Origin: Candidatus Kapaibacterium sp.
Lineage (GTDB): Bacteria; Bacteroidota; Ignavibacteria; Kapaibacteriales; UBA2268
Direction of reading: 5' to 3'
DNA: 45,437 nt
NCBI GenBank assembly: GCA_026390675.1
Contig: JAPLFM010000187.1
Span: 2,012 to 47,448, forward strand
A model generated the notes under the pieces. The model did no database searches. It had not been told where the DNA came from and was given only the letters and a program-made list of their open reading frames with translations. The position numbers and the translations under genes are program-made. The first letter of the stretch is position 1. The number at the start of each line of letters is the position of its first letter. Shown here in pieces: positions 4,307-45,437 of the stretch.

Positions 4307-4538
4307 TTACGCAATATCTACACAATATCCACGTCTTATATTATTCTGTTTTGTCCTCTCTCCAGACGTGGAGAGAGTTAGAGAGAGGTCTCTTAGGGAA
4401 GTAGTTTGAACAAACAAAAGTCGTTTTTTGTCACTCCGAATTTGTGAGGAGTCAAGTGTTTCTGGATTTTTTGTTTCACTCAAAATGACCAAAAAATCAA
4501 AAAAACGCTAAATCACTGCAAAAACTGAAATAAATAAA
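4307..4538. repeat. Mosaic intergenic repeat, left copy (22-nt block 4307-4328 plus 127-nt block 4412-4538), upstream of hicBA
   Basis: ttacgcaatatctacacaatat recurs at 5322-5343. Block 4412-4538 (aaacaaaagtcgttttttgtcactccgaatttgtgaggagtcaag...ctgaaat) recurs at 5396-5522 with one mismatch in my reading. Between the two blocks lies an unrelated palindromic module (ccacgtct...agacgtgg, cctctctc...gagagagg). Confidence 0.9.
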
Positions 4539-4827: not shown

Positions 4828-5028
4828 ATGAATTATTCAGCTATTCTCCAAAAAGAAGATGACTTATATGTTGCATATTGTCCTGAAATTGGAACTGCAA
4901 GTCAAGGAAAAAACATTGAAGAAGCAATCGAAAATCTAAAAGAAGCAACTGAACTATATTTAGAAGAATTTCCAAGTAAAAAAAAGAGTATGGTTCTGAT
5001 GACTACATTTGAGCTTGAAAATGTCTAA
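4828..5028 (+). CDS. hicB: HicB-family antitoxin (UPF0150-like, short form)
   Basis: 66 aa. MNYSAILQKEDDLYVAYCPEIGTASQGKNIEEAIENLKEATELYLEE matches the conserved HicB N-terminal fold signature (YxAxxPExxGxxxQGxTxEEAxxNxxEAxxLxLE). It overlaps the downstream hicA start. Confidence 0.8.
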   Translation: MNYSAILQKEDDLYVAYCPEIGTASQGKNIEEAIENLKEATELYLEEFPSKKKSMVLMTTFELENV

Positions 5029-5257
5029 GCTAAATAGAATTTCTGGTAACAAAGCTATCAAAGTTTTAACAAAATTAGGTTTTTCTTTTGTAAGACAAAA
5101 AGGTAGCCATGTTATTATGAAAAAGAATACTCTAAATGGTGAAATTGGATGTGTTGTACCTTTACATGACGTTTTAGCAATTGGTACATTATCTAATATA
5201 TTGAAACAAGCGAATTTATCTAAAGAAGAATTTTTAGAGACATTAAAAACAATATGA
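5021..5257 (+). CDS. hicA: HicA-family mRNA interferase toxin (YcfA-like)
   Basis: MSKLNRISGNKAIKVLTKLGFSFVRQKGSHVIMKK is the typical HicA core (LxxxGFxxxRxxGSHxxxxK). I prefer the ATG at 5021 over the TTG at 5009 in the track; the ATG overlaps the hicB stop by 8 nt. Confidence 0.8.
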   Translation: MSKLNRISGNKAIKVLTKLGFSFVRQKGSHVIMKKNTLNGEIGCVVPLHDVLAIGTLSNILKQANLSKEEFLETLKTI

Positions 5258-5321: not shown

Positions 5322-5522
5322 TTACGCAATATCTACACAATATATTCGTTATCTTCATATTAATTAAAGTGGTTCTTTTGCAATGCACTTTGGAAAAACA
5401 AAAGTCGTTTTTTGTCACTCCGAATTTGTGAGGAGTCAAGTGTTTCTGGATTTTTTGTTTCACTCAAAATGACCAAAAAATCAAAAAAACGCTAAATCAC
5501 TGCAAAAACTGAAATGAATAAA
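5322..5522. repeat. Mosaic intergenic repeat, right copy, downstream of hicBA
   Basis: Direct-repeat partner of 4307-4538 (blocks 5322-5343 and 5396-5522). Further shared modules follow at 5579-5618 and 5777-5810 (ctttggaaaacttatttggaaaat...). Confidence 0.9.
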
Positions 5523-5934
5523 ATCATAATAAAGCATTGAAAAGTATAGGGTTAAACAGATTTTAACCAAAAAACGTACTTTGGAAAACTTATTTGGAAA
5601 ATTGCGACAGCAATTTGTCTTCCGCCATCTTGATTTTGTATTGTTAAAGTGGGGTTCTTAATTGGATGTATTTTGAAAAGTAAAAGCTGTGCTTTAGCCC
5701 TTAAACAAAAATTTTAGATTCCTGCCTTCGCAGGAATGACATAAAAAAATATCGTCTAAATTTGACAAAAAACAAACTTTGGAAAACTTATTTGGAAAAT
5801 TTTTCCAAACTTTTACAAAATACATAAATTATTACACAAAATTTTTAAAGCATTTAGTTTTTATATGATAGTATATAAACAATAAAATTAGGCAAACTTT
5901 GTTCTTATAATATAAATATTAATAGGAATGAAAA

Positions 5935-8836: not shown

Positions 8837-9277
8837 TTATTTTTTTCTATTTAAAGCCAACAAATCATCAATTTCTAGAGCGTTAATCAAATAAGAACGA
8901 ATAATATTCTCATTGATTTGGCTTAAATCTGTATAATCCTTCCAATAAACCTGTTTACGATTTTCCTTGACTAAAAATCCTATTTCATCATTGAGCAAAT
9001 AACCTTTAGCAAAACCTAATCTTACTCCTTCATTCGTTTTTTTGGAACCCCATAAAACTGAGGAAGGCCAAATAAATGCTATGCTATAATGTCTTTTGTA
9101 AAACGGAACATTAAAAGAAAGGAATTCAGTACAGTTAGGGATGGTTTCAAGCAAAATACTTCTTAAAGCTAAGGCAATTTCAAGTTCATTTTCTGGTAAA
9201 AAATCAAAACAATCATTAATTGTTTTAAATTTTACATTTTGCATTTTCCTTTTAGGTTTATCAAAGCTTAGTTCCAT
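8837..9277 (-). CDS. DUF1801 (YdhG-like) domain protein
   Basis: 146 aa. The pattern LSFNVPFYKRHYSIAFIWPSS...GVRLGFAKG resembles DUF1801 family members. Its stop codon directly abuts the stop of the convergent gene at 8836. Confidence 0.5.
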   Translation of the reverse strand: MELSFDKPKRKMQNVKFKTINDCFDFLPENELEIALALRSILLETIPNCTEFLSFNVPFYKRHYSIAFIWPSSVLWGSKKTNEGVRLGFAKGYLLNDEIGFLVKENRKQVYWKDYTDLSQINENIIRSYLINALEIDDLLALNRKK

Positions 9278-17159: not shown

Positions 17160-17266
17160 TATTCTTAGTTATCTGTTAAAGGTATGTATGAATCTCAGTT
17201 ATAAAACACCAAACTTTTTTCTGTCATACCTTAGAAACAAGAGATCTGAATTATGAATTATAAATT

Positions 17267-24102: not shown

Positions 24103-26228
24103 ATGAAGAAAATCATTTTACTATTTCTAATAATGTTTAGTTTCAATTATTCTAATGCCCTTGATTTTGGTGGTAGGATTTTAAGTATTGATAGTAAAAA
24201 ACCAATATCAGGTGCTACAATTAAATTAGAAGGTACATCAAAAGGTTCAATTTCCAATAAAAGTGGTGAATATATAATTACAAACATCAAAAGTGGAAAA
24301 TATAGAATTTTAGTTAGTTTCGTTGGTTATGAATTAATCGCTAAAGAAATTGAAATTAAGGAAGGGATTAAACTTGATTTTGAGATGGTAGAGACTGTAT
24401 TAAATATGAATACTATTACTACAATTGGTAGAAAAGACCTTCAAGCAGTACAGGAAGTACCAATTTCAATTTCAAATATTAGCAGCGAAGAAATAAATGT
24501 TAGAGGGACTAAATCTATAGAAAAAGCGTTGGAATATGTGTCAGGAGTAGAAGTAAATAGAGATAATATTAGTATTAGAGGTACGAGTGGTTTTACTTTT
24601 GGAATTGGATCTCGAGTTGCATTATTACTTGATGGTTCGCCATTACTTTCAGGTGATAATGGCGATATGAAATTTGATGCTTTGCCACTTTTTAACATAG
24701 AAAGAATTGAAATAATAAAAGGTGCTTCATCTGCTTTGTATGGTACAAGTGCTATTGGAGGAGTAGTAAATATTGTTACTCAAACACCAAAAGAAGAAGG
24801 AGAATTAAATATTCGTTTATTAACTGGTTTTTATTAGATATTTCTTATTCCAAAAAATTTGACAATATAAGTTTAACTACTTCGGCTGGTTATTATGATA
24901 GAGATAATTTCAGATATTTTAATAAACAAAAGCAATTAAATCTGTATTCTAAAATTGGCTATCAAGTTTCTGATAATTTCAGTTTTAACTTATCTGGCAA
25001 TGCTACTATCGTTAGTTATGATGATTGGGTTTTTTGGCGTTCATTATCTCAACCATTTCTACCACCTTTAGGATCTGATTCTATTACTTTAAATTCAGAT
25101 AAATATAATATTATGTTTGATGGTAAGTATTTGTTTGATGAAAATAATTTCTTAATAATTAAGTCAGGTGCATTTTTTACTTCAATGACAAATAATCTGT
25201 CATTAGATAATACTGAGGTAAGAAAGTCAGATGCATTATCTTTAAATAATGATTTCCAATTTTCTTCCAAATTAGATAAAACCTTTTTTCTAACTTATGG
25301 ATTTAATATTGCAAATAACAAAGTTCGTTCTATAACATTTAAAGACCATGACCAATCAATATTTTCTTTTTATACTCAAGGAGAATATTCAGGAATTGAC
25401 AAATTAAATATTACATTTGGTGCAAGACTTGATAAAGAACAAACAGATGCAATTAGTTCAAAATTAGTTGTTTCTCCTAAACTAGGGCTTTCATATAAAC
25501 CAAGCAACAAACTAAATCTGCGAGCTTCTGTTGGAGCTGGCTTTAGAGCTCCTGTTATTGCTGAAAGATTTAGCTCTGTTAAATTTTTGGGTTTTTTGGT
25601 TAGACCTGATTCCACTCTTAGACCAGAAAAAAGCACATCGTATGAAATAGGAACAAACTATGAATTTAAAATTTTGAATACACCAATATATTTAGATTTA
25701 GCTTTATTTCAAAATGATTTGATTGATTTGATAGATCCTGATTTCCCAGATAAAACTAAAGCTGAAGTGCAGTTTAGAAATATTACAAAAGCAAGAATTA
25801 GGGGTTTGGAGATAAATATTAAAACATTTCTTTTTGATTTTTTAGGATTGGAAACTGGTTTAACTGCCATGGAACCTAGAGATTTGGATTTGAATCAAAC
25901 ATTAAAATATAGATCTAAATTTGTTTGGACAAATAAATTATTACTTCCATTAAGCAATAATTTGCAAGTACAAGCCGACTATAGATTCAAAGCTAGAAAT
26001 GAAACTATAGATGATAGGCTTGCTTTTGGAATTAAAGATACTGAAGCTAGAGTAGATGTTCACGTTGTTGATTTAAGATTAATCTACAAAGCTCAAAATG
26101 ATTTTAATATGCCAATTTCTTTTATATTTAGCTGTAATAATTTGCTAAATTATTATTATACTGAACTTGTAGGAAATATGGCAAGTACTAGATTTCTAAA
26201 TTTACAAATTGATTATAAATTGAATTAA
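24103..26228 (+). pseudogene. TonB-dependent receptor (CarboxypepD_reg domain + plug + beta-barrel) interrupted by one frameshift at a T5 run
   Basis: ORF 24103..24837 encodes the CarboxypepD_reg-like segment (GRILSIDSKKPISGATIKLEGT...) and the plug (ISIRGTSGF, ALLLDGSPL, IEIIKGASSALYGTSAIGGVVNI). Frame 3 is open from before 24834 through 26228 and continues the barrel (DISYSKKFDNISLTTSAGYYDRDNFRY...). Adding one T to the run at 24828-24832 would fuse both parts as ...LTGFLLDISYS.... Confidence 0.8.
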
Positions 26229-34267: not shown

Positions 34268-34467
34268 AGTTATGTTTGTTTTATATATGTCATACACCAC
34301 TTATATCGGCACTATTGACAAATACTTTAATAATTTTAATTAATTTAAACTGCACAATATTAGACAATTGTTACAAGTTCTCTTTAATATATTACATAGA
34401 TTATGCCAAAAAAATATTACTTACTTTAAATACTTGATTTTACAACTTGAGATACAAAAGCACCTTT

Positions 34468-34897
34468 CCGTCATTCTGAACGAAGTGAAGAATCAAGTGT
34501 TATCTTTGTCCTCCGCTGGCGTGAGGTGTCAGTCTATGACTGACGGAGGTGGTTCTTGCATTCGCATTCGTAGAGACAGGATTCAATCCTGTCTTAAAAC
34601 ATTTAGTAGCACAGACCTTCTTGTCTGTTTCTTATTTATATTCTGTATTCGTAGGGGCCAAAGCTTGCTCAACCCTTGTTAATTCTTGCATTTGTAGAGA
34701 CAGGATTCAATCCTGTCTCAAAACATGTAGTAGCACAGACATTCTTGTCTGTTTCTTATCTATATCCTATTTTCGTAGGGGTTGAGCTTGCTCAACCCTT
34801 TTTATTATCCCATAAATACAGGGTAGAGCAAGCTCTACCCCTACAACCTCAAATTCATCCGATCAGGCAATCGCCTGTGACTTTAAGTTATCGGATG
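34468..34897. repeat. Cluster of REP-like palindromic units, including a ~130-bp tandem duplication (34553-34675 and 34683-34798)
   Basis: Hairpin-forming units:
- cgtcattctgaacgaagtgaagaatc.
- cctccg...gtcagtctatgactgac...ggagg.
- agacaggattcaatcctgtct (twice).
- acagac(c/a)ttcttgtctgt (twice).
- gggttgagcttgctcaaccc.
- gggtagagcaagctctaccc.
- catccgat..caggcaatcgcctg..atcggatg. Confidence 0.85.
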
Positions 34898-35045
34898 AAT
34901 TCTCCAACCGTCTTTTAAAGCAGGTCAAATCTAGATTTAGTTAAACAAATTGCTAGCTATTTTGTTAAAAACTTTATTATGAATTATGAGTGTTTTTTTA
35001 TAGATTGTAAAAGAGTAAGTATCGAATAAGTAAAAATAAATTTAA

Positions 35046-36008
35046 ATGAATAGCAGTAAAATCAGAGTTGCTTTAATAGATGATGGGTTATTTGTAAACG
35101 AATCTTTTGAAACTATGTTAGGTTTACAATTTCCTATAGTTGAAGTTGTTTGTAAAGCTGAGTCTGTGTATGAAGGAATTATGACTATTAAGGCTTTTAA
35201 ACCAGAACTAGTATTTCTTGATATAAAATATCCTGATGGTACTGGTTTTGATATTTTGAAGAATACAAAAGATGTTCCTTTTAAAACAATTTTAGTTACA
35301 GATTATAATGAATATGCAAAAGAAGCTTTTGAGCATTCAGTTTTACATTATATTAAAAAACCTTATAGGGTTGAAGATATTTCAAATTGTTTAGAATTAT
35401 ATGCAAACGATAAGGAAAACAATAAATTTAAAAAAACTAATGACAATGTAACTACTGATTATCAAAATTTTAAAGATTTAGATTATAAAGATATTGATTT
35501 AAATAAACTTAGTTTTATAGATCTTGAAAAAGAATTTATAGAAAGAAGAAAAAATGTAACCACTGTATTTGAAAATGAAACATTGTTATATAAATATGAA
35601 ATGCTTAATCTAAATAGGAAAATAGCTATTTCAACTCAGAATTACAATAACATTAAAAACGAGATTGAAAGTGATAAAATAGTAATAAATACAAAAGGAG
35701 AAGCTATTGAAATTAATAAATCAGATATAGCATATTGTGTTGGTGATGGTAACTATACAGATTTTGTTTTATCTGATTCTAAAACTCATACTGTTTCAAA
35801 AAAATTAAAATCTATTGTAAAATTAATCAACTCAAATAAATTCATTAGAATTAGTAAAAAACACCTCGTGAATTTTGATTTTGTGAAAGAACATAAAATT
35901 GGAATGATTCATAAGGTAATTATGAAGTGTAATACAGTCTTACAGATAGGCAGAATCTACAAAGAAGAGTTTATTCAAAAGTATAATATCTTCAAATCTA
36001 AAAAGTAA
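35046..36008 (+). CDS. Orphan response regulator of the LytR/AlgR family (REC + ~95-aa Asn/Lys-rich linker + LytTR DNA-binding domain)
   Basis: REC domain: IRVALIDDG, VFLDIKYPDGTGFDIL, ILVTDY, IKKPY. LytTR-like tail: IAYCVGDGNYTDFVLSDSKTHTVSKKLKSIVKLINSNKFIRISKKHLVNFDFV. No histidine kinase gene is adjacent. Confidence 0.85.
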   Translation: MNSSKIRVALIDDGLFVNESFETMLGLQFPIVEVVCKAESVYEGIMTIKAFKPELVFLDIKYPDGTGFDILKNTKDVPFKTILVTDYNEYAKEAFEHSVLHYIKKPYRVEDISNCLELYANDKENNKFKKTNDNVTTDYQNFKDLDYKDIDLNKLSFIDLEKEFIERRKNVTTVFENETLLYKYEMLNLNRKIAISTQNYNNIKNEIESDKIVINTKGEAIEINKSDIAYCVGDGNYTDFVLSDSKTHTVSKKLKSIVKLINSNKFIRISKKHLVNFDFVKEHKIGMIHKVIMKCNTVLQIGRIYKEEFIQKYNIFKSKK

Positions 36009-36097
36009 TCAAAATTCCTTTCAATGTATTTTGTGAAATAGTTATGTATTTTGTGAAATACCTATTTTTTTATTTGGTATTTTCATTTATGTTTGAA
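35971..36097 (+). repeat. Element A, copy 1: a 127-bp segment (last 38 nt of the LytTR gene plus 89 nt downstream), duplicated at 42681-42807
   Basis: Reading both copies base by base, I found no mismatch (offset 6710 nt). Confidence 0.95.
36024..36060 (+). promoter_or_regulatory. Pair of 17-nt direct repeats (ATGTATTTTGTGAAATA x2, 20-nt period): candidate LytTR-regulator binding site
   Basis: Identical 17-mers lie at 36024-36040 and 36044-36060, about two helical turns apart and immediately downstream of the LytTR gene. A TAnnTTTG-like motif (TATGTTTG, 36088-36095) sits at the very end of the duplicated block. Function is inferred. Confidence 0.4.
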
Positions 36098-36156
36098 TTA
36101 AGAAAATCGCTGAAATGATTTATTAAAATTTTAAATGGAGTGAAATGATGAAACCT

Positions 36157-36257
36157 ACATAAAAAAAGAAGTCAAAGCAAAATGCTATGACTTCAATACT
36201 CGATAAACAAAGATTCATACCGTCAAAAGATCAATCTTTGCTTGCAGGTAACTGCAA
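36157..36257 (+). repeat. Element B, copy 1: conserved inter-cassette non-coding element with three hairpins
   Basis: Hairpin 1: gaagtca-a-agca-aaa-tgct-a-tgacttc (36168-36194), preceded by an A7 run. Hairpin 2: caaagatt-N17-aatctttg (36208-36240). Hairpin 3: ttgcag-gtaa-ctgcaa (36242-36257). Homologous copies lie at 39441-39542 and 42808-42880. Confidence 0.85.
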
Positions 36258-36349
36258 AAATAATATTTTATATGCAATATACCAAATAAAATCAAAATGT
36301 ATATTGCTTTCTTTAATGTTCAATGAGCAAAGTGCTTAAAGAACTAAAA

Positions 36350-36357
36350 TATTTTTG
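36350..36357 (+). promoter_or_regulatory. Candidate Bacteroidota-type -7 promoter element (TATTTTTG) proximal to S1
   Basis: It matches TAnnTTTG and ends 23 nt before the S1 ATG. The same octamer sits at the equivalent place before S3. An AAGGA Shine-Dalgarno-like sequence follows. Confidence 0.3.
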
Positions 36358-36380
36358 TAACGAATTAAGGAAACTAAAAA

Positions 36381-36998
36381 ATGAAAAAAATAATATTAAG
36401 TGCATTGCTATATGTAATGCTAATATCTGTGAATTGTGATAATTTGGTGGCAGATTGTCCACCAAATTACATCCAACAAATAATTTTGTACTCAATACCT
36501 GGAACAAATTGTGTAGCAAAAGTAGAAGTTTGTTATCAATGTACACCAACAAATAGTGGTAATGTAAATATTGGTGCGATTGAAATATATGATTGCGACG
36601 ACAGACAAAATGCTTGGGGTGTTCTTAACGCAGATAATAGAAGTGCATTAATAAAATATGCTATTTTACATATTAATTATGGCAATTGCACTCCACCTCC
36701 TTGTGATCAAGGTGTTAAACAGTTTGTAGTAAGATCTAGTGCTTGTAACTATTATCAAAATGTTGTTGTAAATGGTGTAAAAATAGTTTCAAAATTGATT
36801 CCATGTAGTTCAGATGGCGCTTATTGTGAAAAAACTTATAATTTATGTTGGGATGGTACAACTATGTTAGTTACTTTAACAGGTTCTTATTTAATAGGTA
36901 TACCTAATTGTTCAACTATTCTACCGGAAATTGGTTCTTATCCATATAATTGGGATCAAAACTGGGAAACATATTGCTTTACAGCTGGCTGCAATTAA
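36381..36998 (+). CDS. S1: secreted cysteine-rich protein (14 Cys in the predicted mature part), unknown family
   Basis: 205 aa with signal peptide MKKIILSALLYVMLIS. Cys positions are colinear with S2 and S3, with motifs CPxx(Y/F), CxxC, CxxxPC, PCxxxGAYCExxYxxC(W/V)D and a C-terminal CFTxGCN. Confidence 0.85.
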   Translation: MKKIILSALLYVMLISVNCDNLVADCPPNYIQQIILYSIPGTNCVAKVEVCYQCTPTNSGNVNIGAIEIYDCDDRQNAWGVLNADNRSALIKYAILHINYGNCTPPPCDQGVKQFVVRSSACNYYQNVVVNGVKIVSKLIPCSSDGAYCEKTYNLCWDGTTMLVTLTGSYLIGIPNCSTILPEIGSYPYNWDQNWETYCFTAGCN

Positions 36999-37014
36999 TA
37001 AATAGGATTATATT

Positions 37015-39402
37015 ATGAAAAAATTAGTTTTAGCATTTCTTATTTTAACAAGTGTTGCTATTTCATCACAAAATTTACCTTTTAAAATGGAAAGATTAAA
37101 TACTGATTTTAAGGGAGTAATTTATTTCAATAACACCATTTTTGCCTATGGCGATTATGGTGTTATTCTTTCAACTAAAGATTTTGGAAAAAATTGGAAA
37201 CAAAATGATATTGATGAAGATTCAGATATAAAAAATATAATTGAAATAAATGGTAGGTTAATAGGTATAGCTGGTTCGAATATTATTGAATATGATAATA
37301 TCAGAGATGTTTGGAATAAATATTTTATTAAAGATTCAATTATGTACAAAGATATTGCTTATGCAAATAGTCAAATTTTTTTAATTTCTGATAATAAAAT
37401 AAAGTCTTTTGATTTAAATTTTAATTTAATCATCGAAGATTTTATTAAAGATAACTCAAAATTTAAAGCTATTGAAACTAAAGATAATGAATTAAATATT
37501 CTAACTACAAATCTAAAATTGATAAAATATGATACTCAGAATAATTTCATTAAAGATTCAATAAATCTAAATAGTAAAATAAATTTTATAAGTACAGATA
37601 ATTTAGAATTTAAGATCATAGATAATGATTATTACTTAGGTTTAATTTCTGGATTACATAAAAGTATTGATGGTGGTTTTAATTGGAATAAAATTGATAC
37701 TATTTATAATACCTTTGAAGTAAAAAATAAAATAATTTATGAAATTTCTTCATTAAATAATCTTAAAACTCCTTCAGAAATTAATTTTAATAAATTTGAA
37801 CAAAATGTTAAAAAGAATATAAATCAAAATTATAAAAATAAAGATAGTACACGTTTAGTTTTCTCTTATGACTTCAAAGGATTTATTTTTATTTCAAATG
37901 ATACTATAGTTTCTGTTGGAGCAGATAAATTAATTGCTATGTCTATTGATGGAGGAAAAGACTGGGAAGTCATTTCTTATTTCAATACTTATTATGCTCA
38001 GCATGGCAATCAATTGCATATTGTAAACGATAGTTTGATATTTGCTTTAAATAGAAATTTTTGTATTAATAAATCTACTAATGGTGGTTTGACGTGGCTT
38101 CCCCAATATTTTAAATATAGGAATTCAAGTGATTATAAAATATTTAACGCTAACTACAATAATAATTGGGGTGAAAACAATACTTATTTTGATAATAAAG
38201 GAAATGGGATTTGTGTTTTAACTTCACGAGATTATATACAAGGGCAAGACTCAATAAATTTTATGAGAACCTTTGACTTTGGAAATACATACGAATATGG
38301 ATATAATAAAGGATTGGATATTGGAGATGGATTAATTGGAGCAAATTTTGTGAAATTTGATTCTAACCTAATTCTGCTCAGCTCAGACTATAATAGATTT
38401 GCACCTTCATATCAGAACACAAACTATATTAGATTGTCTAAATTTGATAATAAATTAAATTTTATTGAAAATATAAAAATTAATTATCAAAAAATACTTA
38501 AAATAATTTCTGATGAAAGTCAAAATTCATTTTTCTTAATAAAAGATAGTACTGGTATTAATTTATGTGAATATACAAGCGGAATAGACACATTTAGAAT
38601 ACTTTATAGTAAATTAAACTTTTTAGAAAATCAACAAATTAAAAGAATTCGATTATTAAATAATAATAAAAGAAAATATCTATTGTATTTCACTGATTCT
38701 ACATCAGGAGGGGAAGTTTTTGATGTACAAAGTGGTAAGTTTATAATAACAAAAAGAACTGTAATTGATACTTTGTTTTTTTATAATTTAGATACTAAAG
38801 AAACAATTGTTTCCTATGTAACTACTGATACAAACTCTCATTTGAGGAATTCTATTTATGGAGAGTCTTTTTTTAAAATAGATGATTCTTGTTTTCTTAG
38901 CACTTCTGATGGTATCATATTTAATGATAATATTTTTATTGATTGTAAAAATTGGGAGGAAATAAATGTTTCTACCTATTCTTTTTGGGGCATATTAAAA
39001 GGTAATAAATATATATTTTGTGTAAATAGTAATAAGGATTTTAGTGAAAGAAAATATGGAGGTGTTTTTAGGTTGTCTTTTTTAGAAAGTAAATCTTCAA
39101 TTGAAACTATTGAAGACCAAACATATTTCTATTCATATCCTCCATATCCTTTACCAGCAAGAAATGAGTTGAAATCATTAATTTATTGGGATATGAGTTA
39201 TAATATAGATGATTCTGATATTGGAGTTTATGATATTTATGGAAATAAAATAGCAAATAGAGAAAAGATAAGTATAAACAAATTAAATTCTTATTCAGGT
39301 TATCTTTCTTGGGATTGTACTGGGGTTGGTACTGGAGTTTATATAATACAGATTAAGCATGGCACTAATACACATAATATTAGAGCTATGGTGGTGCGGT
39401 AG
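37015..39402 (+). CDS. L1: secreted BNR/Asp-box-repeat propeller-like protein with a T9SS C-terminal sorting domain
   Basis: 795 aa, starting 16 nt after the S1 stop. It has a signal peptide and the BNR-like motifs STKDFGKNWKQ, KSIDGGFNWNK, MSIDGGKDWEV, KSTNGGLTWLP and RTFDFGNTYEYG. The tail EDQTYFYSYPPYPLP...GVYIIQIKHGTNTHNIRAMVVR is shared with L0 and L2. Confidence 0.85.
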   Translation: MKKLVLAFLILTSVAISSQNLPFKMERLNTDFKGVIYFNNTIFAYGDYGVILSTKDFGKNWKQNDIDEDSDIKNIIEINGRLIGIAGSNIIEYDNIRDVWNKYFIKDSIMYKDIAYANSQIFLISDNKIKSFDLNFNLIIEDFIKDNSKFKAIETKDNELNILTTNLKLIKYDTQNNFIKDSINLNSKINFISTDNLEFKIIDNDYYLGLISGLHKSIDGGFNWNKIDTIYNTFEVKNKIIYEISSLNNLKTPSEINFNKFEQNVKKNINQNYKNKDSTRLVFSYDFKGFIFISNDTIVSVGADKLIAMSIDGGKDWEVISYFNTYYAQHGNQLHIVNDSLIFALNRNFCINKSTNGGLTWLPQYFKYRNSSDYKIFNANYNNNWGENNTYFDNKGNGICVLTSRDYIQGQDSINFMRTFDFGNTYEYGYNKGLDIGDGLIGANFVKFDSNLILLSSDYNRFAPSYQNTNYIRLSKFDNKLNFIENIKINYQKILKIISDESQNSFFLIKDSTGINLCEYTSGIDTFRILYSKLNFLENQQIKRIRLLNNNKRKYLLYFTDSTSGGEVFDVQSGKFIITKRTVIDTLFFYNLDTKETIVSYVTTDTNSHLRNSIYGESFFKIDDSCFLSTSDGIIFNDNIFIDCKNWEEINVSTYSFWGILKGNKYIFCVNSNKDFSERKYGGVFRLSFLESKSSIETIEDQTYFYSYPPYPLPARNELKSLIYWDMSYNIDDSDIGVYDIYGNKIANREKISINKLNSYSGYLSWDCTGVGTGVYIIQIKHGTNTHNIRAMVVR

Positions 39403-39440: not shown

Positions 39441-39542
39441 ACATAAAAAAAGAAGTCAAAGCAAAATGCTCTGACTTCCAAACTGAAAAAAACAAAGATT
39501 GAGACCGACAAAAGTTTAATCTTTGCTTGCAGGTAACTGCAA
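39441..39542 (+). repeat. Element B, copy 2 (hairpins at 39452-39478, 39493-39525 and 39527-39542)
   Basis: It has the same three hairpins as copy 1. The stems are conserved while the 17-nt loop of hairpin 2 differs. There is no element A in front of this copy. Confidence 0.85.
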
Positions 39543-39621
39543 AAATAAGTTTTTTTAATCAAATAATAAGCTATATAAATGTTTTTGTATAGTATTTTTA
39601 AACAATTTTTGGAGTTTTTTT

Positions 39622-40254
39622 ATGAAAAAGATATTTTTAAGTGCATTGCTTTTTGTAATGCTAATCTCAATGAGTTATGAGTTGTCATACGCTTCTTGTC
39701 CAAGTGGATATTACTCAGGATTTGTTTATAAAAACATCTCAGGCTGTAACTTTAAAGTTACTTATTGTTATAAATGTGATCCAACAGGAGTAACTGATAT
39801 ACAATTAGATACTATTACTATTCCATTAGGTTGTAGCCTTTCTTTAGCACTAAATAATTTACAAGCAATAAGTGAAGCAGCAGTATATAACATTATTTCA
39901 ACTGGAGGCTGTACTACCCAACCTTGTGGCACTATACCACCTACAGTATATTCTATCAAAGTATCGACAAATATATGCAATAGAGTAGTCAATACTGTTT
40001 ATTTTAATGGAGTAGATTCGCTACATCTAAACACATTACTAATTCCTTGTGACCCAGGAGGGGCTTATTGTGAAAGACGATATGCAGTCTGTGTGGATAA
40101 TAACCAAACTCCACCTGTTTATTATACTAATTATTTGGGTAGTACTCCTTATGGTTCTCCTTCTTGTACAGCTGGTGTACCTACTTTACCACCTTCAGGT
40201 AAATCTATGGATGAATATTGGGATACTGGATGTTTTACAACTGGTTGTAATTAA
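39622..40254 (+). CDS. S2: secreted cysteine-rich protein, paralog of S1 and S3
   Basis: 210 aa. The signal peptide MKKIFLSALLFVMLISMSY is nearly identical to that of S1 and S3 at the nucleotide level. It has 14 colinear Cys and ends in CFTTGCN. Confidence 0.85.
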   Translation: MKKIFLSALLFVMLISMSYELSYASCPSGYYSGFVYKNISGCNFKVTYCYKCDPTGVTDIQLDTITIPLGCSLSLALNNLQAISEAAVYNIISTGGCTTQPCGTIPPTVYSIKVSTNICNRVVNTVYFNGVDSLHLNTLLIPCDPGGAYCERRYAVCVDNNQTPPVYYTNYLGSTPYGSPSCTAGVPTLPPSGKSMDEYWDTGCFTTGCN

Positions 40255-40269
40255 TTATAGGAAAGTATT

Positions 40270-42639
40270 ATGAAAAAGTTAGTTTTAGCCTTTCTTATTT
40301 TAGCAAGCATTGCTATTAATGCACAAACCTTACCTTTCAAAATGGAAAGGATGAATACTAATTTTAATAGTATTAGTTGTTTTAATAACACCATATTTGT
40401 CGGAGGCAAATATGGTGTTATTCTTTCGTCAAAAGACTTTGGTAAAAGTTGGAAAAAACAATTTATTGATGAAAACTTAACTATATATAAGTTTTTAAAA
40501 GTTGAAGATAGATTATTAGGTTTAGCATCAAATAAACTAATTGAGTTTGATAAATTAAGTGAAAATTGGAAAGTAGTTAATATGATTGATTCTACTCCAA
40601 TTCTAAACATTGAGTATTCAAATAATAATTTAATTGTATTATATCAAAACAAAGTAAAATTGTATGATAAAAATTTGAATTTGATAGAAGAAGATTTAAT
40701 AAAATCAGATTCAAGTTTTGTAAATTGTTCTTTAGATAAAAGTTTATTATATGTGATTTTAAAAGATTATATATTAATTAAATATGATTTGAATAATAAA
40801 AACATTACCCAAACTAATTTGAAAGATAGACTTAATTGTGATGCTTGCAAAGTATCAAAATTTGAAATCAAAGATAGTATTATTGTTTTTAAAACAAACA
40901 AAGGAATGTATATTAGTAAAAATAAAGGAACAGATTTCTTTGTAATAGGAAACACACTTACAACTTTTGAAATATTCAATAATGATATTTATGAGATTGA
41001 AAATAGTATTAAACCTTTAATTACAAAAGCTATTAGTACTATAGACTTTAATAAAATAACAAATAACCTAAGAAACAAACTATCAATTATAAATGAAGAT
41101 AGTTTGAGATTAAGTCATAGTTATCAATTTGAAGATTTGTGTTTTATGAATAAAGATATTATAATCGGAGTAGGAAATAATAATTTAATTTCTATTTCAT
41201 ATAATGGTGGAGTTACTTGGAAAGTGATATCTTATTTAGATAATAATCCAATTGAACAAAATAGATATGCAAAAATGTATTATGTTAACGATAGCTTAAT
41301 GTATGTGATGGGTGAAAATTTTGTTATATATAAGTCTCTAGATGCTGGCAATACATGGTTACCTCAATATTATACTTCAAATAAAATATACTTGGATTCA
41401 TATAATGATCTATTCCCAAATCAACACAATCTTTATTTTGATGAAAAAGGCTATGGAATTATTATTAACAATTCTTATGCAGTTAGAGATACATTTAAGA
41501 ATAAAAATAATATTAATTATATGATTACAAAAGACTTTGGAAATACTTATGAATATGGGTATAGTAGGAATATAGATAACTTAGGAAATATAGGGAATTA
41601 TTTTATTCCATCGGATAATAATATAACAATGTTTTGTACAAGTTCTTTTAAATTTCAAGGAGTTGATACATTAACTACATATTTAATATATTATATATTT
41701 GATAAAAATATGAAATATCTTTCAAAAAAAGTAGAAATTGGCAGACTATTAGATAAAGTAATTTTTGATGAATATAAAAATTGTTATATAGTTTTAAAAG
41801 AACAAAATGAGAAAAATATTTATAAATTTTCTCAATTAAATGGGAATTTAGAATTAATAAGAAAAAACATTGATTATTCTGATTTTGGTACTCAAATAAT
41901 AAACAATAAAGACAAATCACTTTCATTAATGTATTATAAGGAAATAGCTTCAGGTGGTCCAATAATAGTAAATAAGGAAGTTGTTATTACCCCAAGAAAG
42001 CTCATTGACACCTTATTCAACTTTAATTTAAGCGATAATACTAAGAAAGTTGAATATATTAATACGGACACTTTATTTAATATTTTTGATACTGGGTATG
42101 GAAATACATTTCATATAGTTGATAATTCATTTTATATTAATTGTGTAAATGGATTAATTAGAAAAAAAGATATAAATAATAGTAATAGTTGGGAAAAAAT
42201 ACCTATTCCAGGTTATATTTTATGTAGTGTATTTTACGGAGATAAATATAATTTATGCTATAATAAAGGTGATGCTTATGGGTCTGTTCAAGCTGGACTT
42301 TTCAAAATTATTCCAAATAATCCTATAACAACTGTCGAAATTCAAACAGAAGATTTTACATACTTTTACTCCTACCCACCTTTCCCAACACCTTCGATAA
42401 ATGTTGTGATGAGTTTGATTTATTGGGATATGAGTTATAATATAGATGATTCTGACATTGGAGTTTATGATATTTACGGAAATAAAGTAGCTGATAGAGA
42501 TAAGATAAGTATAAATAAACTAAATTCATATTCAGGTTATCTTACTTGGGATTGCTCAGGTATTGCTACTGGTGTTTATATGATACAAATCAAACATGGA
42601 ACTAATACTAATAATATCAGAGCTATGGTGGTGAGGTAA
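40270..42639 (+). CDS. L2: secreted BNR/Asp-box-repeat propeller-like protein with a T9SS C-terminal sorting domain
   Basis: 789 aa, starting 15 nt after the S2 stop. The N-terminal ~65 aa (MKKLVLAFLILASIAINAQTLPFKMERMNTNF...YGVILSSKDFGKSWKKQ) and the C-terminal ~97 aa closely match L1. The core is diverged. Confidence 0.85.
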   Translation: MKKLVLAFLILASIAINAQTLPFKMERMNTNFNSISCFNNTIFVGGKYGVILSSKDFGKSWKKQFIDENLTIYKFLKVEDRLLGLASNKLIEFDKLSENWKVVNMIDSTPILNIEYSNNNLIVLYQNKVKLYDKNLNLIEEDLIKSDSSFVNCSLDKSLLYVILKDYILIKYDLNNKNITQTNLKDRLNCDACKVSKFEIKDSIIVFKTNKGMYISKNKGTDFFVIGNTLTTFEIFNNDIYEIENSIKPLITKAISTIDFNKITNNLRNKLSIINEDSLRLSHSYQFEDLCFMNKDIIIGVGNNNLISISYNGGVTWKVISYLDNNPIEQNRYAKMYYVNDSLMYVMGENFVIYKSLDAGNTWLPQYYTSNKIYLDSYNDLFPNQHNLYFDEKGYGIIINNSYAVRDTFKNKNNINYMITKDFGNTYEYGYSRNIDNLGNIGNYFIPSDNNITMFCTSSFKFQGVDTLTTYLIYYIFDKNMKYLSKKVEIGRLLDKVIFDEYKNCYIVLKEQNEKNIYKFSQLNGNLELIRKNIDYSDFGTQIINNKDKSLSLMYYKEIASGGPIIVNKEVVITPRKLIDTLFNFNLSDNTKKVEYINTDTLFNIFDTGYGNTFHIVDNSFYINCVNGLIRKKDINNSNSWEKIPIPGYILCSVFYGDKYNLCYNKGDAYGSVQAGLFKIIPNNPITTVEIQTEDFTYFYSYPPFPTPSINVVMSLIYWDMSYNIDDSDIGVYDIYGNKVADRDKISINKLNSYSGYLTWDCSGIATGVYMIQIKHGTNTNNIRAMVVR

Positions 42640-42680: not shown

Positions 42681-42807
42681 TTATTCAAAAGTATAATATC
42701 TTCAAATCTAAAAAGTAATCAAAATTCCTTTCAATGTATTTTGTGAAATAGTTATGTATTTTGTGAAATACCTATTTTTTTATTTGGTATTTTCATTTAT
42801 GTTTGAA
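42681..42807 (+). repeat. Element A, copy 2 (includes a 38-nt fragment of the 3' end of the LytTR gene)
   Basis: Exact duplicate of 35971-36097. Here it is fused directly to a 5'-truncated element B. Confidence 0.95.
42734..42770 (+). promoter_or_regulatory. Second copy of the 17-nt direct-repeat pair (candidate LytTR box), upstream of cassette 3
   Basis: ATGTATTTTGTGAAATA at 42734-42750 and 42754-42770, within element A copy 2. Confidence 0.4.
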
Positions 42808-42880
42808 CTCTGACTTCAATACTCGAAAAACAAAGATTATGACCCTACAAAGTACAATCTTTGCTTGCAGGTAACTGCAA
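42808..42880 (+). repeat. Element B, copy 3 (left arm of hairpin 1 deleted; hairpins 2 and 3 intact)
   Basis: Only the right arm ctgacttc of hairpin 1 remains. Hairpin 2 is caaagatt (42831-38) N17 aatctttg (42856-63). Hairpin 3 is ttgcag gtaa ctgcaa (42865-80). Homology with copy 1 continues down to the S3 start codon. Confidence 0.85.
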
Positions 42881-42970
42881 AAATAAGTATTTATACGTAA
42901 TATACCAAATTAAATCAAAATGTATATTACTTTCTCTAAAGCTCTATAAGTTTAGAGCTTAAACAACTAA

Positions 42971-43002: not shown

Positions 43003-43623
43003 ATGAAGAAAATAATATTAAGTGCATTGCTATTTGTAATGCTAATTTCGATGAGTTATCAAAGTGCAGAGGCTACATGTCCGACAGGATTTACTGAATA
43101 TACTCAAACAATTACTTATGGTGGATGTGAATGGACAGTAATATTTTGTGTGAAGTGTGGTGTCACTACTGGTTACAATGAAGTTTGGATTCAACAATTT
43201 TCAATTCAAAATTCATCTTGCTATACTTACTTCACGGCACATTCACAAGAAGTTATAGATGCAATAGCAGCAAATGTAACTTTATTGACTGCCGATATTT
43301 GTGGAATTAAACCACCTTGTGGTAGTGGAATAAGATATACTTATGTTTACCTTGCAACATGTTGGCAAAATATGCATGTTGTTAATAGTACTGAAGATTA
43401 TTTTGTACAAAGATTTTGTAGCGATATTGAATTTTGTAAGTCAACATATTCGACTTGTTGGGATTATTCAGTAACGCCTGCTACACCTGTTTTGACTTTA
43501 ATAGGCAAACAGCATTACGGTACTCCACAATGTGCACGAAATAATAATAAACCAAGTGATTTTGATAATCCAACTCCTCCAAATAATTGGTCTTCTTGTT
43601 GGGAAGAATTTCTTTGCAAATAA
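43003..43623 (+). CDS. S3: secreted cysteine-rich protein, the most diverged paralog
   Basis: 206 aa with signal peptide MKKIILSALLFVMLISMSYQSAEA. It has 14 colinear Cys and a C-terminal CWEEFLCK instead of CFTxGCN. Confidence 0.85.
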   Translation: MKKIILSALLFVMLISMSYQSAEATCPTGFTEYTQTITYGGCEWTVIFCVKCGVTTGYNEVWIQQFSIQNSSCYTYFTAHSQEVIDAIAANVTLLTADICGIKPPCGSGIRYTYVYLATCWQNMHVVNSTEDYFVQRFCSDIEFCKSTYSTCWDYSVTPATPVLTLIGKQHYGTPQCARNNNKPSDFDNPTPPNNWSSCWEEFLCK

Positions 43624-43643
43624 TTTATATATAAAAGGTATTT

Positions 43644-45437
43644 ATGAAAAAATCAACTTTATTAATTGCATTACTATTATTGAATTTTAGTTTAATATTT
43701 TCCCAAGCAAATAGTGACAATTTGCTTTGGGAAAATGATATTAAAAGTATTGATTTTAGTGGTACTTTGGCTATTGGAAATAATGTATTTGCTTATGGTA
43801 CTAAAGGGATGTACTTTTATTCAAGTGATAAAGGAGTGGGCTGGGAGCAGAAAAAAGTTGAGAATGCTTCCAGTATTATAAAACTCCTAAATATTGATAA
43901 CAAAATAATTGGATTTACAGCAAGCGGTCAGCTTCTGCAAAGTGAAGACTTTGGTAAAACTTGGCAAATAAGTAAGTTAGAAAATGTTGAACTAATTTGT
44001 TTTGTTGATACTTACTTAAGTAATATATATATAAGAACAAATAAATCAATTAATTTATATAATAATAAATTAGAATTAATTTCTTCATATAAAAATGATG
44101 CTTTAAATGATTTTTCAATTTATGAAATTGAATCAGATGTTTCATCAATTTCTTCTTGGCATAATATTATTTTTCATAAAAATGAATTATATTTTTATAT
44201 TGCTAATAATCCAAAGCTTTATAAAATAAATATAAATAAATTTCTAAATAATGAAATTAAGATTGATACTATTACTCCTTGTGATACTTGTCAAACAGGT
44301 AATATTGGTGATTTAAGCAAATATAACAACACAATTACTTTTTATTTAAGTAGATTTAATGACAAGTATGAAAGTCGAGATTACAAGTACAATTTAGATT
44401 CTAATAGTATTTCTGAAAATTCATACGATGAAAAGAGAAAATATAGTGGAAAATATTTTAATTTAAATGGAATAAATTATAGATTTTATGATTTTGCACC
44501 ATATTGGATATCTAACTACCCAACTAATTATTTTAAATTAGGTGTGGATATTTTAAACACTTCTGATAGTTTGACAAATAAAGGTAATTCAGATTTTATT
44601 GGAGTAAATCGTTCTCCAGTAATTAGTGATGTATGTCAAGTATCAGATAGTACTTTTATAGCTGTTTCTGGATATAAGTTTTTAATAATTTCAAATGATA
44701 AATGCAAGACTTGGAAAGTAATTAGCTCAAGAGGAGATTTGGCTCAAACTAAACCTGATTTGATAAGTAAAAATTATAGATATTTTGCTAATAATTTAAC
44801 AAATATATCTTCTTCAATTGATAATGGATTGACTTATAAATTTATTGAAAGAGATTTGAATGAATCAGAATTAGTTAAGTTTTATAAAAATTCACAGACA
44901 AAAATTACAGCCAAATATTTAGATACAAATGGGACTTTTATTTATTTAATGACAAGTAATTTGAGCAATTACAATAATATTGCAGTTAGCAAAGACTATG
45001 GCAAAACAGCCACTTATTTTAAAAATAATTCAGTTGCATATTCAACTTCTGATGTAATCAATTTTAGCAAAATAGATAATAAACTTATTTACTTGTTTAA
45101 TTATCAAACAATCAATAAAAATTATTTCATATACTGTAATTTTGATTTGAATATGAATATTACAAGAAGAATAGTTGATTCTATTAATATTGCAAAATTT
45201 GTTTCATTTAAAAATTTGAATGAGGGATTTATGATTACTGCAATTCGTAATCCAACTCCAACAAAAATTGAAGCATTAACTTGGAATGCTAAGGATTCGA
45301 ATTGGATTAGATCTAAATCTTTAGATTTAGTTTATACAGATTTAAAAGTATTTTCTTATGGTAAAAATAAAGATAGTGCTATAGTTTGCGTTATTAATTT
45401 TAATGCTGGAATAAGTAACAATAAGATTTATATTTAT
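43644..45437 (+). CDS. L3: secreted BNR-repeat propeller-like protein, 3' end outside the window
   Basis: It is absent from the ORF track because no stop codon is reached. My translation from the ATG at 43644 (20 nt after the S3 stop) is open for 598 codons to the window end: MKKSTLLIALLLLNFSLIFSQANSDNLLWENDIKSIDFSG...YSSDKGVGWEQ...QSEDFGKTWQI...ISNDKCKTWKV...VSKDYGKTATYF. Confidence 0.8.
   Translation, partial: MKKSTLLIALLLLNFSLIFSQANSDNLLWENDIKSIDFSGTLAIGNNVFAYGTKGMYFYSSDKGVGWEQKKVENASSIIKLLNIDNKIIGFTASGQLLQSEDFGKTWQISKLENVELICFVDTYLSNIYIRTNKSINLYNNKLELISSYKNDALNDFSIYEIESDVSSISSWHNIIFHKNELYFYIANNPKLYKININKFLNNEIKIDTITPCDTCQTGNIGDLSKYNNTITFYLSRFNDKYESRDYKYNLDSNSISENSYDEKRKYSGKYFNLNGINYRFYDFAPYWISNYPTNYFKLGVDILNTSDSLTNKGNSDFIGVNRSPVISDVCQVSDSTFIAVSGYKFLIISNDKCKTWKVISSRGDLAQTKPDLISKNYRYFANNLTNISSSIDNGLTYKFIERDLNESELVKFYKNSQTKITAKYLDTNGTFIYLMTSNLSNYNNIAVSKDYGKTATYFKNNSVAYSTSDVINFSKIDNKLIYLFNYQTINKNYFIYCNFDLNMNITRRIVDSINIAKFVSFKNLNEGFMITAIRNPTPTKIEALTWNAKDSNWIRSKSLDLVYTDLKVFSYGKNKDSAIVCVINFNAGISNNKIYIY

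Follow-up and report, generated by a model that had tools for sequence, protein, structure and literature searches.

A putative LytTR-dependent promoter segment, recently copied intact ahead of a third secreted-protein gene pair in Candidatus Kapaibacterium sp.

The window (the whole 45,437-nt stretch of Candidatus Kapaibacterium sp. DNA that we analysed, with 29% G+C) contains a gene for a response regulator followed by three cassettes, each composed of an S gene and an L gene (Table 1). L1 is a BNR/YCF48-like protein with a T9SS C-terminal domain (CTD). The S family, with 525 cluster representatives, has no counterpart in Pfam. The S1 model has a confidently predicted fold, and when searched against the PDB its best match reached only E = 8e-3 and TM ~0.14. 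Both S and L proteins have diversified strongly, although leader segments, signal-peptide regions and the CTD-coding ends are 76-87% shared among these otherwise diverged genes, giving a mosaic array. Neither recombinase genes nor a histidine kinase gene were found in the window, and no plus-strand terminator-like sites were found between the cassettes. A locus search with the S alignment in the metagenome_contigs and genome_contigs collections retrieved no related loci, and signal-peptide pattern searches yielded at least 600 candidates. As cues to the host lineage, the best match of L outside the window came from an Ignavibacteria MAG and T9SS CTDs are present; a survey of upstream regions within the window was uninformative.

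The regulator encoded at this locus combines a receiver with a LytTR domain (Pfam Response_reg, E 2.8e-10, and LytTR, E 8.7e-08, both over the gathering scores). Its translation shows an intact acidic pocket, D59, T85 and K105 in the receiver, and the linker is ~70 aa longer than usual. The best NCBIfam match was BtsR, with 64 bits as compared with an equivalog cutoff of 246. Homologues of the regulator were too distant to serve as a source of operator sequences, the best one showing 40% identity in the receiver only and residing in an ordinary HK-RR pair (locus L003). We also discarded an autoregulatory half-site, TATTTTGTTAAA at 34958, since its five one-mismatch matches were within chance (2.4 ± 1.7 expected).

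Table 1. Features of the regulator and S/L region, in window coordinates
Feature	Coordinates	Strand	Remarks
Regulator module (short leader, regulator gene, twin repeats, -7 box)	35009..36102	+	Absent as one unit from L004/L006
Response regulator gene, 320 aa	35046..36008	+	Receiver, residues 8-114; LytTR, residues 221-311
127-nt block, source copy	35971..36097	+	Regulator 3' end, twin repeats, T-rich spacer, -7 box
Final 12 codons of the regulator with stop, inside block copy 1	35971..36008	+	Direct sequence reading
Distal repeat ATGTATTTTGTGAAATA, candidate LytTR site	36024..36040	+	About -76 to -60
Proximal repeat ATGTATTTTGTGAAATA, candidate LytTR site	36044..36060	+	About -56 to -40
TATGTTTG, candidate -7 box	36088..36095	+	44 nt past ATGT of the proximal repeat, as in L007; predicted start ~36100
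Hairpin 3 (GAAGTCAAAGCAAAATGCTATGACTTC), leader of cassette 1	36168..36194	+	A7 ahead; second at ~39452-39478; cassette 3 keeps only the 3' arm, 42808-42817
Element B, a pair of hairpins (GUAA loop in the second)	36208..36264	+	Further copies at ~39493-39549 and ~42831-42887
Cassette 1 (S1 36381-36998, L1 37015-39402)	36381..39402	+	S1, 205-aa Cys-rich secreted protein
Cassette 2 (S2 39622-40254, L2 40270-42639)	39622..42639	+	Without upstream block
127-nt block, derived copy	42681..42807	+	41 nt past the L2 stop; abuts the 3' arm of truncated hairpin 3
Regulator's final codons and stop as a non-coding relic, block copy 2	42681..42718	+	Marks copying direction
Distal repeat, block copy 2	42734..42750	+	Exact 17-mer match
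Proximal repeat, block copy 2	42754..42770	+	Exact 17-mer match
TATGTTTG, copy 2, candidate -7 box	42798..42805	+	Predicted start ~42810
Cassette 3 (S3 43003-43623, L3 43644 onward)	43003..45437	+	L3 runs off the window

The 3' end of the regulator gene opens a 127-nt block that occurs twice, in direct orientation and 6710 nt apart, with the phasing and copy number of the intervening 6.7-kb unit taken as assembled. A previous sequence-only reading had described both blocks as identical, each with a 17-mer repeated at a 20-nt period; both claims held, and every coordinate that it gave was correct. A repeat search and direct reading showed 127/127 identical positions, making the block the longest exact repeat of the window, ahead of one of 120 nt (4412/5396) and others of at most 44 nt. 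Both edges are abrupt: on the left, the regulator coding sequence before copy 1 and the 3' flank of L2 before copy 2 share no homology, and on the right cassette 3 lacks 36098-36177, after which homology returns at 78% identity, the edge of copy 2 falling within hairpin 3 of cassette 3. By hand arithmetic, the chance of 127/127 identity by parallel descent, with neighbouring sequence at 78%, is ~0.78^127, or roughly 2e-14. The block thus shows identity far above that of the flanking paralogous sequence, sharp breakpoints and an inferable direction, as would a segmental copy.

The direction can be read from the first 38 nt of the block, which are the coding end and stop of the regulator gene and are functional in copy 1 only. 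Copy 2 carries them as a dead relic, indicating that the regulator-proximal copy is the original. The adjoining leader, homologous between cassettes, is 78% identical, and L3 and L1 share 21% identity. As judged from these alignments the copy is recent, and its identity is not due to constraint, because the coding end of the regulator has no role in copy 2. Of the origins initially proposed for the identity (recent duplication, gene conversion or strong constraint), a recent copy agrees with the 78% flank and the regulator tail, and constraint is not needed. The left flank of copy 2 showed no significant similarity to the A-run preceding hairpin 3 (p = 0.05-0.29), and we propose no reconstruction of the insertion site on that side. 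Together, these comparisons show that the 127-nt stretch was copied recently, and intact, before the third secreted-protein gene pair.

The first repeat begins 16 nt after the regulator stop. Allowing 0 mismatches, ATGTATTTTGTGAAATA occurs in the window at 36024, 36044, 42734 and 42754 only. Exact two-copy direct repeats of at least 15 nt with a period of 12-30 nt number three in the 45-kb window (both block copies and a heptamer microsatellite), and repeats of this type are otherwise virtually absent from the 107 kb of DNA surveyed. The degenerate core ATGTNNTTNGNNAANT appears five times in the window, versus 0.62 expected. The exact twin-repeat pattern had no match in the genome_contigs or viral_contigs collections, and neither had the degenerate composite pattern in viral_contigs; the predicted composite signature consists of ATGTNNTTNGNNAANT twice with a 20-nt period, 28 nt, and then TANNTTTG. 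LytTR sites are made of two 9-11-nt repeats, 11-13 nt apart and with a start-to-start distance of 20-24 nt (PMC4847170), and the 20-nt step from 36024 to 36044 agrees with this rule. The repeats had been put forward as a candidate LytTR operator, a proposal supported, at the sequence level, by this geometry, by the adjacent REC+LytTR gene and by a counterpart in a second genome (see below).

Each block copy ends in TATGTTTG, previously interpreted as a -7 element of the TAnnTTTG type. The -7 box spans positions -12 to -5 relative to the start site (PMC9723704); if TATGTTTG does so, the repeats would lie at about -76 to -40 and the block at about -129 to -3, for a predicted start and an assumed promoter type. 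In Chlorobi, the sister lineage, promoters follow a Bacteroidetes-like pattern, TTG-N17-23-TAnnTTTG (10.1101/172254). A -33 TTG, sought 17-23 nt upstream of the box, is absent, the interval 36061-36072 having no G, and the promoter should therefore depend on the activator. The interpretation of TATGTTTG as a -7 box fits its sequence and its offset, which is the same in the second genome. However, TAnnTTTG alone is weak evidence, with 117 occurrences in the window and none upstream of most window genes, and its weight comes only from the conserved offset. We discarded an extended -10 (TGgTATTTT, 36075-36083) as core promoter, since the second genome does not preserve it. Proximal TATTTTTG boxes occur at 36350 and 42971, and a proximal T-rich box is found 24-31 nt ahead of the ATG in all three S genes; these T-rich boxes could be the real S promoters.

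Hairpin 3 and element B lie between the predicted start and S1. Element B is kept in contigs L007 and L004-L006, with one compensatory pair. The sequence-only reading had noted that cassette 2 has element B without the block, which is indeed so, and hairpin 3 is present there as well. Its proposal of long structured leaders gains support from the comparison with the related contigs L004 and L006, because leader homology resumes ~3 nt past the predicted start, at 36103. Rfam covariance models gave no match at gathering thresholds in the whole window, and only chance-level matches at E<=1 in 34300-36400, while a scan of metagenome_contigs with the element B core retrieved a single match (L001), due to chance and in an unrelated coding context. 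A minus-strand sRNA from element B was dropped as a candidate, since the putative minus-strand TATTTTTG would start transcription within the invariant hairpin. The small leader ORFs were likewise rejected, being unconserved between cassettes.

The one independent locus whose DNA we could compare is L007, a contig from an unrelated MAG, with the order LytTR regulator, hairpin 3/element B, S and L. Its regulator is 38% identical to that of the window in the LytTR domain. The contig contains a twin repeat, ATGTCATTCGGAAACTT, with a 20-nt period, and TATTTTTG at the matching 44-nt offset; a TTG at 458-460 leaves a 20-nt spacer to the box. This repeat, AATGTCATTCGGAAACTT twice with a 20-nt period, is the sole short-range direct repeat of the contig and sits 90-129 nt upstream of the regulator ATG, whereas the repeats of the window lie between the regulator and S. 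Both loci share the TTCAATGT start of the repeat and a related core, ATGTnnTTnGnnAAnT. From TTCAATGT to TAnnTTTG they align without gaps, with 46/76 identical positions, the top score of 205,870 background positions (mean 23, sd 4.4), although the highest chance matches, at 44 and 42, lie not far below. Among the fetched loci, the composite of repeat, 4 nt, repeat, 28 nt and TAnnTTTG matches L007 alone. The related contigs either have both the regulator gene and the repeat/-7 region or lack both. The box thus appears to co-vary with related regulators, through the diverged core of L007 and the joint loss in L004/L006, on the basis of one independent locus. In a third genome, GCA_041447055.1, the genes are arranged as HK, RR(LytTR), S, L, with a spacer of 332 nt between RR and S. 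Relatives also differ in cassette order, and in L004 a distal leader resembling that of cassette 1 is fused to a proximal leader resembling that of cassette 2, together with an S2 orthologue. These comparisons support the earlier proposal that cassettes 1 and 3 would be controlled by the adjacent regulator and show that the architecture is conserved in a second genome.

We consider it reasonably probable that the block is a regulator-dependent promoter module, recently copied before cassette 3. Binding, activation, the start sites and any activity or selection of copy 2 are what we infer in the following scheme. The twin 17-nt repeats would be the sites for a dimer, or for two protomers, of the adjacent phosphorylatable LytTR regulator, and TATGTTTG, 44 nt past the proximal repeat, would act as the -7 box of a Bacteroidota/Chlorobi-type sigma-A promoter. 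A start near 36100 would produce an S1-L1 mRNA with a leader of ~280 nt that holds hairpin 3 and element B. Transcription would probably read on into S2-L2, because no plus-strand terminator-like site separates the cassettes. The last 127 nt of the regulator module were recently copied in one step into the L2-S3 spacer, replacing the 5' arm of hairpin 3. Cassette 3 would thereby have gained its own promoter copy, from which a transcript starting near 42810 would have a ~190-nt leader.

The most serious competitor, which we nevertheless regard as unlikely, is a neutral by-product of recombination, with the 17-mers arising as a 20-nt slippage duplication, the block copy as a further illegitimate or templated repair event in an array highly prone to recombination, and the real promoters being proximal or upstream of the regulator. 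The repeat units are about 17-18/20 identical, and their 17-nt identity is longer than a typical LytTR site of 9-11 nt needs, which a recent slippage could explain; the array is clearly mosaic, cassette orders vary among relatives, the window has the second long exact repeat of 120 nt, and TATTTTTG boxes precede S1 and S3. Conversely, slippage does not account for the twin repeat of L007, different in sequence but with the same period, start and offset to TAnnTTTG, and also beside a LytTR regulator. The scarcity of comparable repeats in the 107 kb surveyed further weighs against it, as do the end of the block, at most 3 nt from the predicted start and at most 5 nt from the boundary of the regulator module, and the TA of the proximal box, unconserved in cassette 2, L004 and L007.

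Cassette switching appears less probable still. Here, RecA-dependent deletion or amplification of the 6.7-kb unit (cassettes 1 and 2) would place cassette 3 behind the regulator, generating population heterogeneity, and the recombinants would re-form the repeat and maintain its identity. The perfect direct repeats, the strong diversification of S and L, and the gain or loss of cassettes in related contigs, with joints inside conserved leader repeats as in the L004 fusion, are all in line with this process. However, the window encodes no recombinase, 127 bp of homology would support ordinary low-frequency homologous recombination only, and the internal twin repeats and their conservation in L007 are left unexplained; moreover, switching is compatible with a promoter function of the block rather than an alternative to it.

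We find it very improbable that another DNA-binding protein, such as a dimeric helix-turn-helix protein, recognizes the small 5+5 dyad (TATTT-N4-AAATA) held by each 17-mer while the LytTR regulator acts elsewhere. The twin units are also able to pair with each other as RNA or ssDNA, but at 29% G+C a 5-nt A/T dyad is nothing unusual, it is missing from the L007 repeats, which keep the direct-repeat geometry, and the repeats are gained and lost along with the LytTR gene. Least credible of all is an assembly artefact in which the contig threads a loop or joins strains through one shared 127 k-mer: 127 is the largest k-mer of common metagenome assembly settings, the edges are abrupt and metagenomes contain, side by side, related strains that differ in cassette arrangement, yet the non-homologous junctions (L2 flank/regulator tail and block/truncated hairpin 3) must exist in reads, de Bruijn assemblers do not collapse near-identical copies with different flanks, the 120-nt exact repeat of the same contig is not a k value, and under either phasing each block copy precedes an S/L cassette.

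A LytTR box next to a weak promoter is a textbook mechanism, and the block would be a tidy case of promoter copying rather than a new type of system. In Staphylococcus aureus, AgrA binds a pair of direct repeats directly upstream of the weak core promoters P2 and P3 of agr (PMC4227749). The window repeats, at about -76 to -40, are comparable to the AgrA sites, and the regulator gene also adjoins its predicted target; in L007, the regulator gene seems to follow its own operator, suggestive of autoregulation as at P2. The window differs from agr in phylum and in promoter type (a TAnnTTTG -7 box versus -35/-10), in repeats identical over 17 nt versus imperfect 9-mers, in the lack of genes for an autoinducing peptide, AgrB/D or a kinase near the regulator, and in its predicted targets, T9SS-linked secreted proteins. 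The YpdB/BtsR operators of Escherichia coli (GGCATTTCAT direct repeat, PyhjX) have a similar period of 20-24 nt (PMC4847170). Unlike those proteins, the window regulator is not an equivalog, has the extra linker of ~70 aa and lacks an adjacent LytS-type kinase. The site sequences are unrelated save for a possible short ATTTCA on the opposite strand.

ComE/BlpR/PlnC-type regulons of Firmicutes include several operons, each with the same LytTR direct-repeat box. Similarly, a single LytTR regulator would drive neighbouring operons of the window through repeated box-plus-promoter units; the second unit, however, is a very recent verbatim copy of 127 nt with a piece of regulator coding sequence, not an independently maintained one, and the cargo consists of large secreted protein pairs instead of bacteriocins or competence genes. 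With respect to Bacteroidota/Chlorobi sigma-A promoters, the window and L007 share a perfect TAnnTTTG at a conserved offset, and L007 has a TTG 20 nt upstream; the -33 TTG is missing from the window, and this promoter type is not evident upstream of most window genes. Our literature search found nothing on LytTR control of T9SS cargo or on LytTR control in Ignavibacteria.

If correct, our interpretation predicts an operator composed of ATGTnnTTnGnnAAnT twice with a 20-nt period and TAnnTTTG 44 nt downstream, and would provide an operator of a LytTR regulator outside Firmicutes and Proteobacteria, home of almost all known sites. It would also link a large, uncharacterised family of paired secreted proteins with a two-component regulator. 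The copy before cassette 3 would be regulatory rewiring caught in the act, a promoter without transcribed sequence and with zero substitutions placed before an old, diverged paralogue. More speculatively, and with rather low confidence, the locus may represent a portable regulator-operator module of ~1.1 kb whose promoter end (-129 to -3) is copy-pasted within a hypervariable S/L array, which, along with recombination at leader repeats, would amount to phase or antigenic variation by promoter shuffling under two-component control. If true, such a portable module would give Ignavibacteria-like bacteria a dedicated way to switch or re-weight the S/L variant, surface or secreted, that they express.

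The longest exact repeat of the window is a block of 127 nt, and direct comparison of its copies, at 35971-36097 and 42681-42807, gave 127 of 127 identical positions, as the sequence-only reading had reported. Its further observations were also reproduced: each copy contains the 17-mer ATGTATTTTGTGAAATA twice, 20 nt start to start, and ends with the -7-like motif TATGTTTG (at 36088 and 42798), and cassette 2, the middle of three S/L gene pairs, is without the block. The four zero-mismatch matches of the 17-mer in the window are confined to the two copies. Such repeats are otherwise almost absent: exact direct repeats present in two copies, 15 nt or longer and with a period of 12-30 nt, number three in the window, one in each block copy and one in a heptamer microsatellite. 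A second long exact direct repeat, of 120 nt (4412-4531 and 5396-5515), flanks a HicB/HicA-like toxin-antitoxin pair (4828-5257), with more copies of TTTGGAAAACTTATTTGGAAAATT at 4593, 5578 and 5778.

The regulator gene that overlaps the first block copy encodes a canonical phospho-acceptor pocket, as read from its sequence, and its linker exceeds that of homologues by about 70 aa; neither histidine kinase nor recombinase genes are encoded within the window (G+C, 29%). Downstream lie the three S/L cassettes. The S proteins (about 205 aa; 30-37% mutual identity) are Cys-rich and carry signal peptides, and the L proteins (about 790 aa; L1 42% identical to L2 and 21% to L3) are BNR/YCF48-like with a T9SS C-terminal domain (CTD), their best relative outside the window being from an Ignavibacteria MAG. 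A profile search returned 525 cluster representatives of the S family at E<=1e-3, a large and unannotated family matching no Pfam or NCBIfam family, with eight invariant Cys and a BNR-like L gene always next. AlphaFold modelled S1 with confidence (pLDDT 89.6, pTM 0.82), yet the model had no fold match in the PDB at E<=1e-3. About 230 nt of T9SS-CTD-coding DNA are about 87% identical across 19740-19987, 39150-39402 and 42390-42639, in the gene for an otherwise unrelated 906-aa protein, L1 and L2, and (AATTATG)n heptamer runs at 17247, 19986, 34978 and 42638 lie after or before several of these genes. Genes for T9SS cargo may therefore have recombined or exchanged modules. Elsewhere in the window, a TonB-dependent receptor is seemingly split into a Plug-domain and a beta-barrel ORF (24103-24837 and 25113-26228; 275-nt gap); either a pseudogene or a frameshift introduced by sequencing may account for the split.

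Coordinates of the main features (window positions unless a contig is named; promoter elements relative to the predicted start)
Feature	Coordinates	Predicted start	Content
Response regulator, 320 aa	35046-36008		receiver and LytTR domains
S1	36381-36998		
S1 paralogues	39622-40254; 43003-43623		
A7/hairpin 3/element B unit	36168-36264; 39452-39549; 42808-42887; L007 1380-1485; L004 541-645		
1094-nt unit missing from L004/L006	35009-36102		regulator short leader, regulator gene, twin repeats, -7 box
Candidate promoter in block copy 1		~36100	repeats -76 to -60 and -56 to -40; block -129 to -3
Candidate promoter in block copy 2		~42810	repeats and block span as copy 1, by identity
Candidate promoter in L007		~493	repeats as copy 1; TTG at -35 to -33

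The regulator gene ends inside the block, whose nucleotides 1-38 (35971-36008) comprise its codons 309-320 and stop. Their counterpart in copy 2 begins 41 nt past the L2 stop and has no reading frame of any length; because this regulator tail sits in non-coding DNA, copy 2 derives from copy 1. No homology between the two loci exists left of the block, where similarity at the insertion site of copy 2 is not significant and the site is not reconstructable. To the right, cassette 3 is without an equivalent of 36098-36177, and homology restarts in the 3' arm of the conserved leader structure hairpin 3 (CTCTGACTTC), the 5' arm of which was destroyed by the right edge of the copy event. Past this arm the cassette-3 leader shows only 78% identity, a background at which, by our own arithmetic, 127 of 127 matches have a chance of about 2e-14. 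This difference rules out shared descent of the block with its flank, and purifying selection fails as the cause of the identity because the regulator codons serve nothing in copy 2. With both excluded, the block stems from a copy event of its own that was very recent; of the explanations first offered for the perfect identity, recent duplication therefore stood and strong constraint did not. We consider it probable that the block is a promoter module dependent on the LytTR regulator, copied recently from the 3' flank of the regulator gene to a position ahead of cassette 3. It is unlikely that the block is a neutral by-product of recombination, and less likely again that it serves mainly in cassette switching, as a substrate for recombination, a role compatible with that of a promoter module.

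Genome and metagenome collections, scanned directly for S relatives as well as for the repeat pair, yielded nothing useful, and related loci were reached through look-ups of some of the 525 S representatives; the comparison rests on one independent locus with DNA, contig L007 (GCA_043743005.1). Its 278-aa REC+LytTR regulator is 38% identical to that of the window in the LytTR domain, and the regulator stop is directly followed by A7, hairpin 3, the leader structure element B, an S homologue and an L gene, with no twin repeat between regulator and S. The sole short-range direct repeat of the contig, AATGTCATTCGGAAACTT twice with a 20-nt period, lies instead 90-129 nt upstream of the regulator ATG. 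Both loci align without gaps from TTCAATGT across both repeats to the TAnnTTTG box (TATTTTTG), which in each starts 44 nt past the ATGT of the second repeat. This ungapped 76-nt match, with 46 identities, ranked first among 205,870 background positions (mean 23, sd 4.4), followed by scores of 44 and 42. The core shared by the two loci, ATGTnnTTnGnnAAnT, was counted five times in the window, where 0.62 occurrences are expected, and the composite pattern matches only L007 among the fetched loci. A FabH-like gene has a single extra match to the degenerate core about 270 nt upstream (ATGTATTTTGAAAAGT, 5666-5681); as it lacks a partner at 20 nt, it is probably due to chance. The palindromic motif CAAACGGTTTG forms runs ahead of the twin repeats of the L007 regulator (313-362) and, on contig L011 of the same MAG (163-195), ahead of a second S gene without twin repeats; these runs may be the site of another S/L-gene regulator.

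The flavobacterial TAnnTTTG box spans -12 to -5 (PMC9723704), and in Chlorobaculum, of the sister class, the housekeeping promoter is Bacteroidetes-like, TTG-N17-23-TAnnTTTG (10.1101/172254). TAnnTTTG alone is weak evidence, because it occurs 117 times in the window and is not seen upstream of most of its genes; only its conserved offset carries weight. The -33 region of the proposed window promoter has no G, which fits an activator-dependent promoter. The repeat geometry agrees with the general form of LytTR sites, two repeats of 9-11 nt with 11-13 nt between (PMC4847170), and with AgrA, whose sites adjoin weak promoters on the upstream side (PMC4227749). The two repeat units are alike at 18 of 20 positions, a similarity beyond what LytTR binding calls for, and may therefore have arisen by recent slippage. 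That the repeats are an operator for another protein we regard as very doubtful. An extended -10 alternative, TGgTATTTT (36075-36083), was rejected as not conserved in L007. Each S gene also has a proximal T-rich box 24-31 nt before its ATG that could be a promoter, although cassette 2, L004 and L007 do not conserve its TA.

In contigs L004 and L006, hairpin 3 and element B precede an orthologue of S2, and L004 432-478 and 486-545 match window 34963-35008 and 36103-36165, respectively; since these matches bracket 1094 window nt, replaced in L004 by 7 nt (479-485), the unit that holds the regulator gene, the twin repeats and the -7 box is absent whole from L004/L006. Its left boundary directly follows a conserved TAGATTGT box (35001-35008; L004 471-478), which could be the promoter of the window regulator and of the S2-like cassette of L004. 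The block right edge (-3), the boundary of the regulator module (36102) and the onset of L004 leader homology (36103, about +4) all lie no more than 6 nt from the predicted start, a pattern expected if promoters were swapped upstream of a fixed transcribed leader, and one that supports the long structured leader proposed from sequence. In L005 the L-to-S2 junction is that of the window; in GCA_041447055.1, known from gene order alone, the order is HK, 84-aa gene, RR(LytTR), 332-nt spacer, S and L; and the S/L loci of L002 and L011 lack element B, twin repeats and a neighbouring regulator. About six tandem copies of the 13-nt unit TTTAATTTTTTCT (8906-8990) fill part of the 613-nt spacer before the single L002 cassette (Ignavibacteria MAG). 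Between a 1985-aa T9SS protein gene and the regulator, and also upstream in L004 and L006, lies a GC-richer hairpin cluster (34480-34850; L004 120-330; L006 1-240), about 90% conserved in related contigs, in which terminator-like stems accompany a tandem duplication of 124 nt (34564-34657, 34688-34781); a small-RNA locus and a REP-like element are both possible identities.

Across genomes, every S gene is preceded by a conserved and structured leader unit about 100 nt long. It consists of hairpin 3, in which an 11-bp stem follows an A7 run, and of element B, a pair of hairpins of which the second has a GUAA loop. Both elements are kept in all cassettes, L007 and L004-L006, with one compensatory pair, and match no Rfam family. 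They fold well on either strand (z-scores -4.3 to -5.2); read on the minus strand, hairpin 3 with the T7 run behind it resembles an intrinsic terminator. No terminator-like sites separate the cassettes on the plus strand, which makes read-through from cassette 1 into cassette 2 plausible.

An assembly artefact is the least credible origin of the duplication: 127 is a common assembler k-mer, but the block junctions must exist in the reads; the phasing and copy number of the 6.7-kb unit are those of the assembly. Recent copying of a LytTR-dependent promoter would be a mechanism of a known kind; new here are the lineage, the target gene family and a freshly duplicated module consisting of the promoter only.
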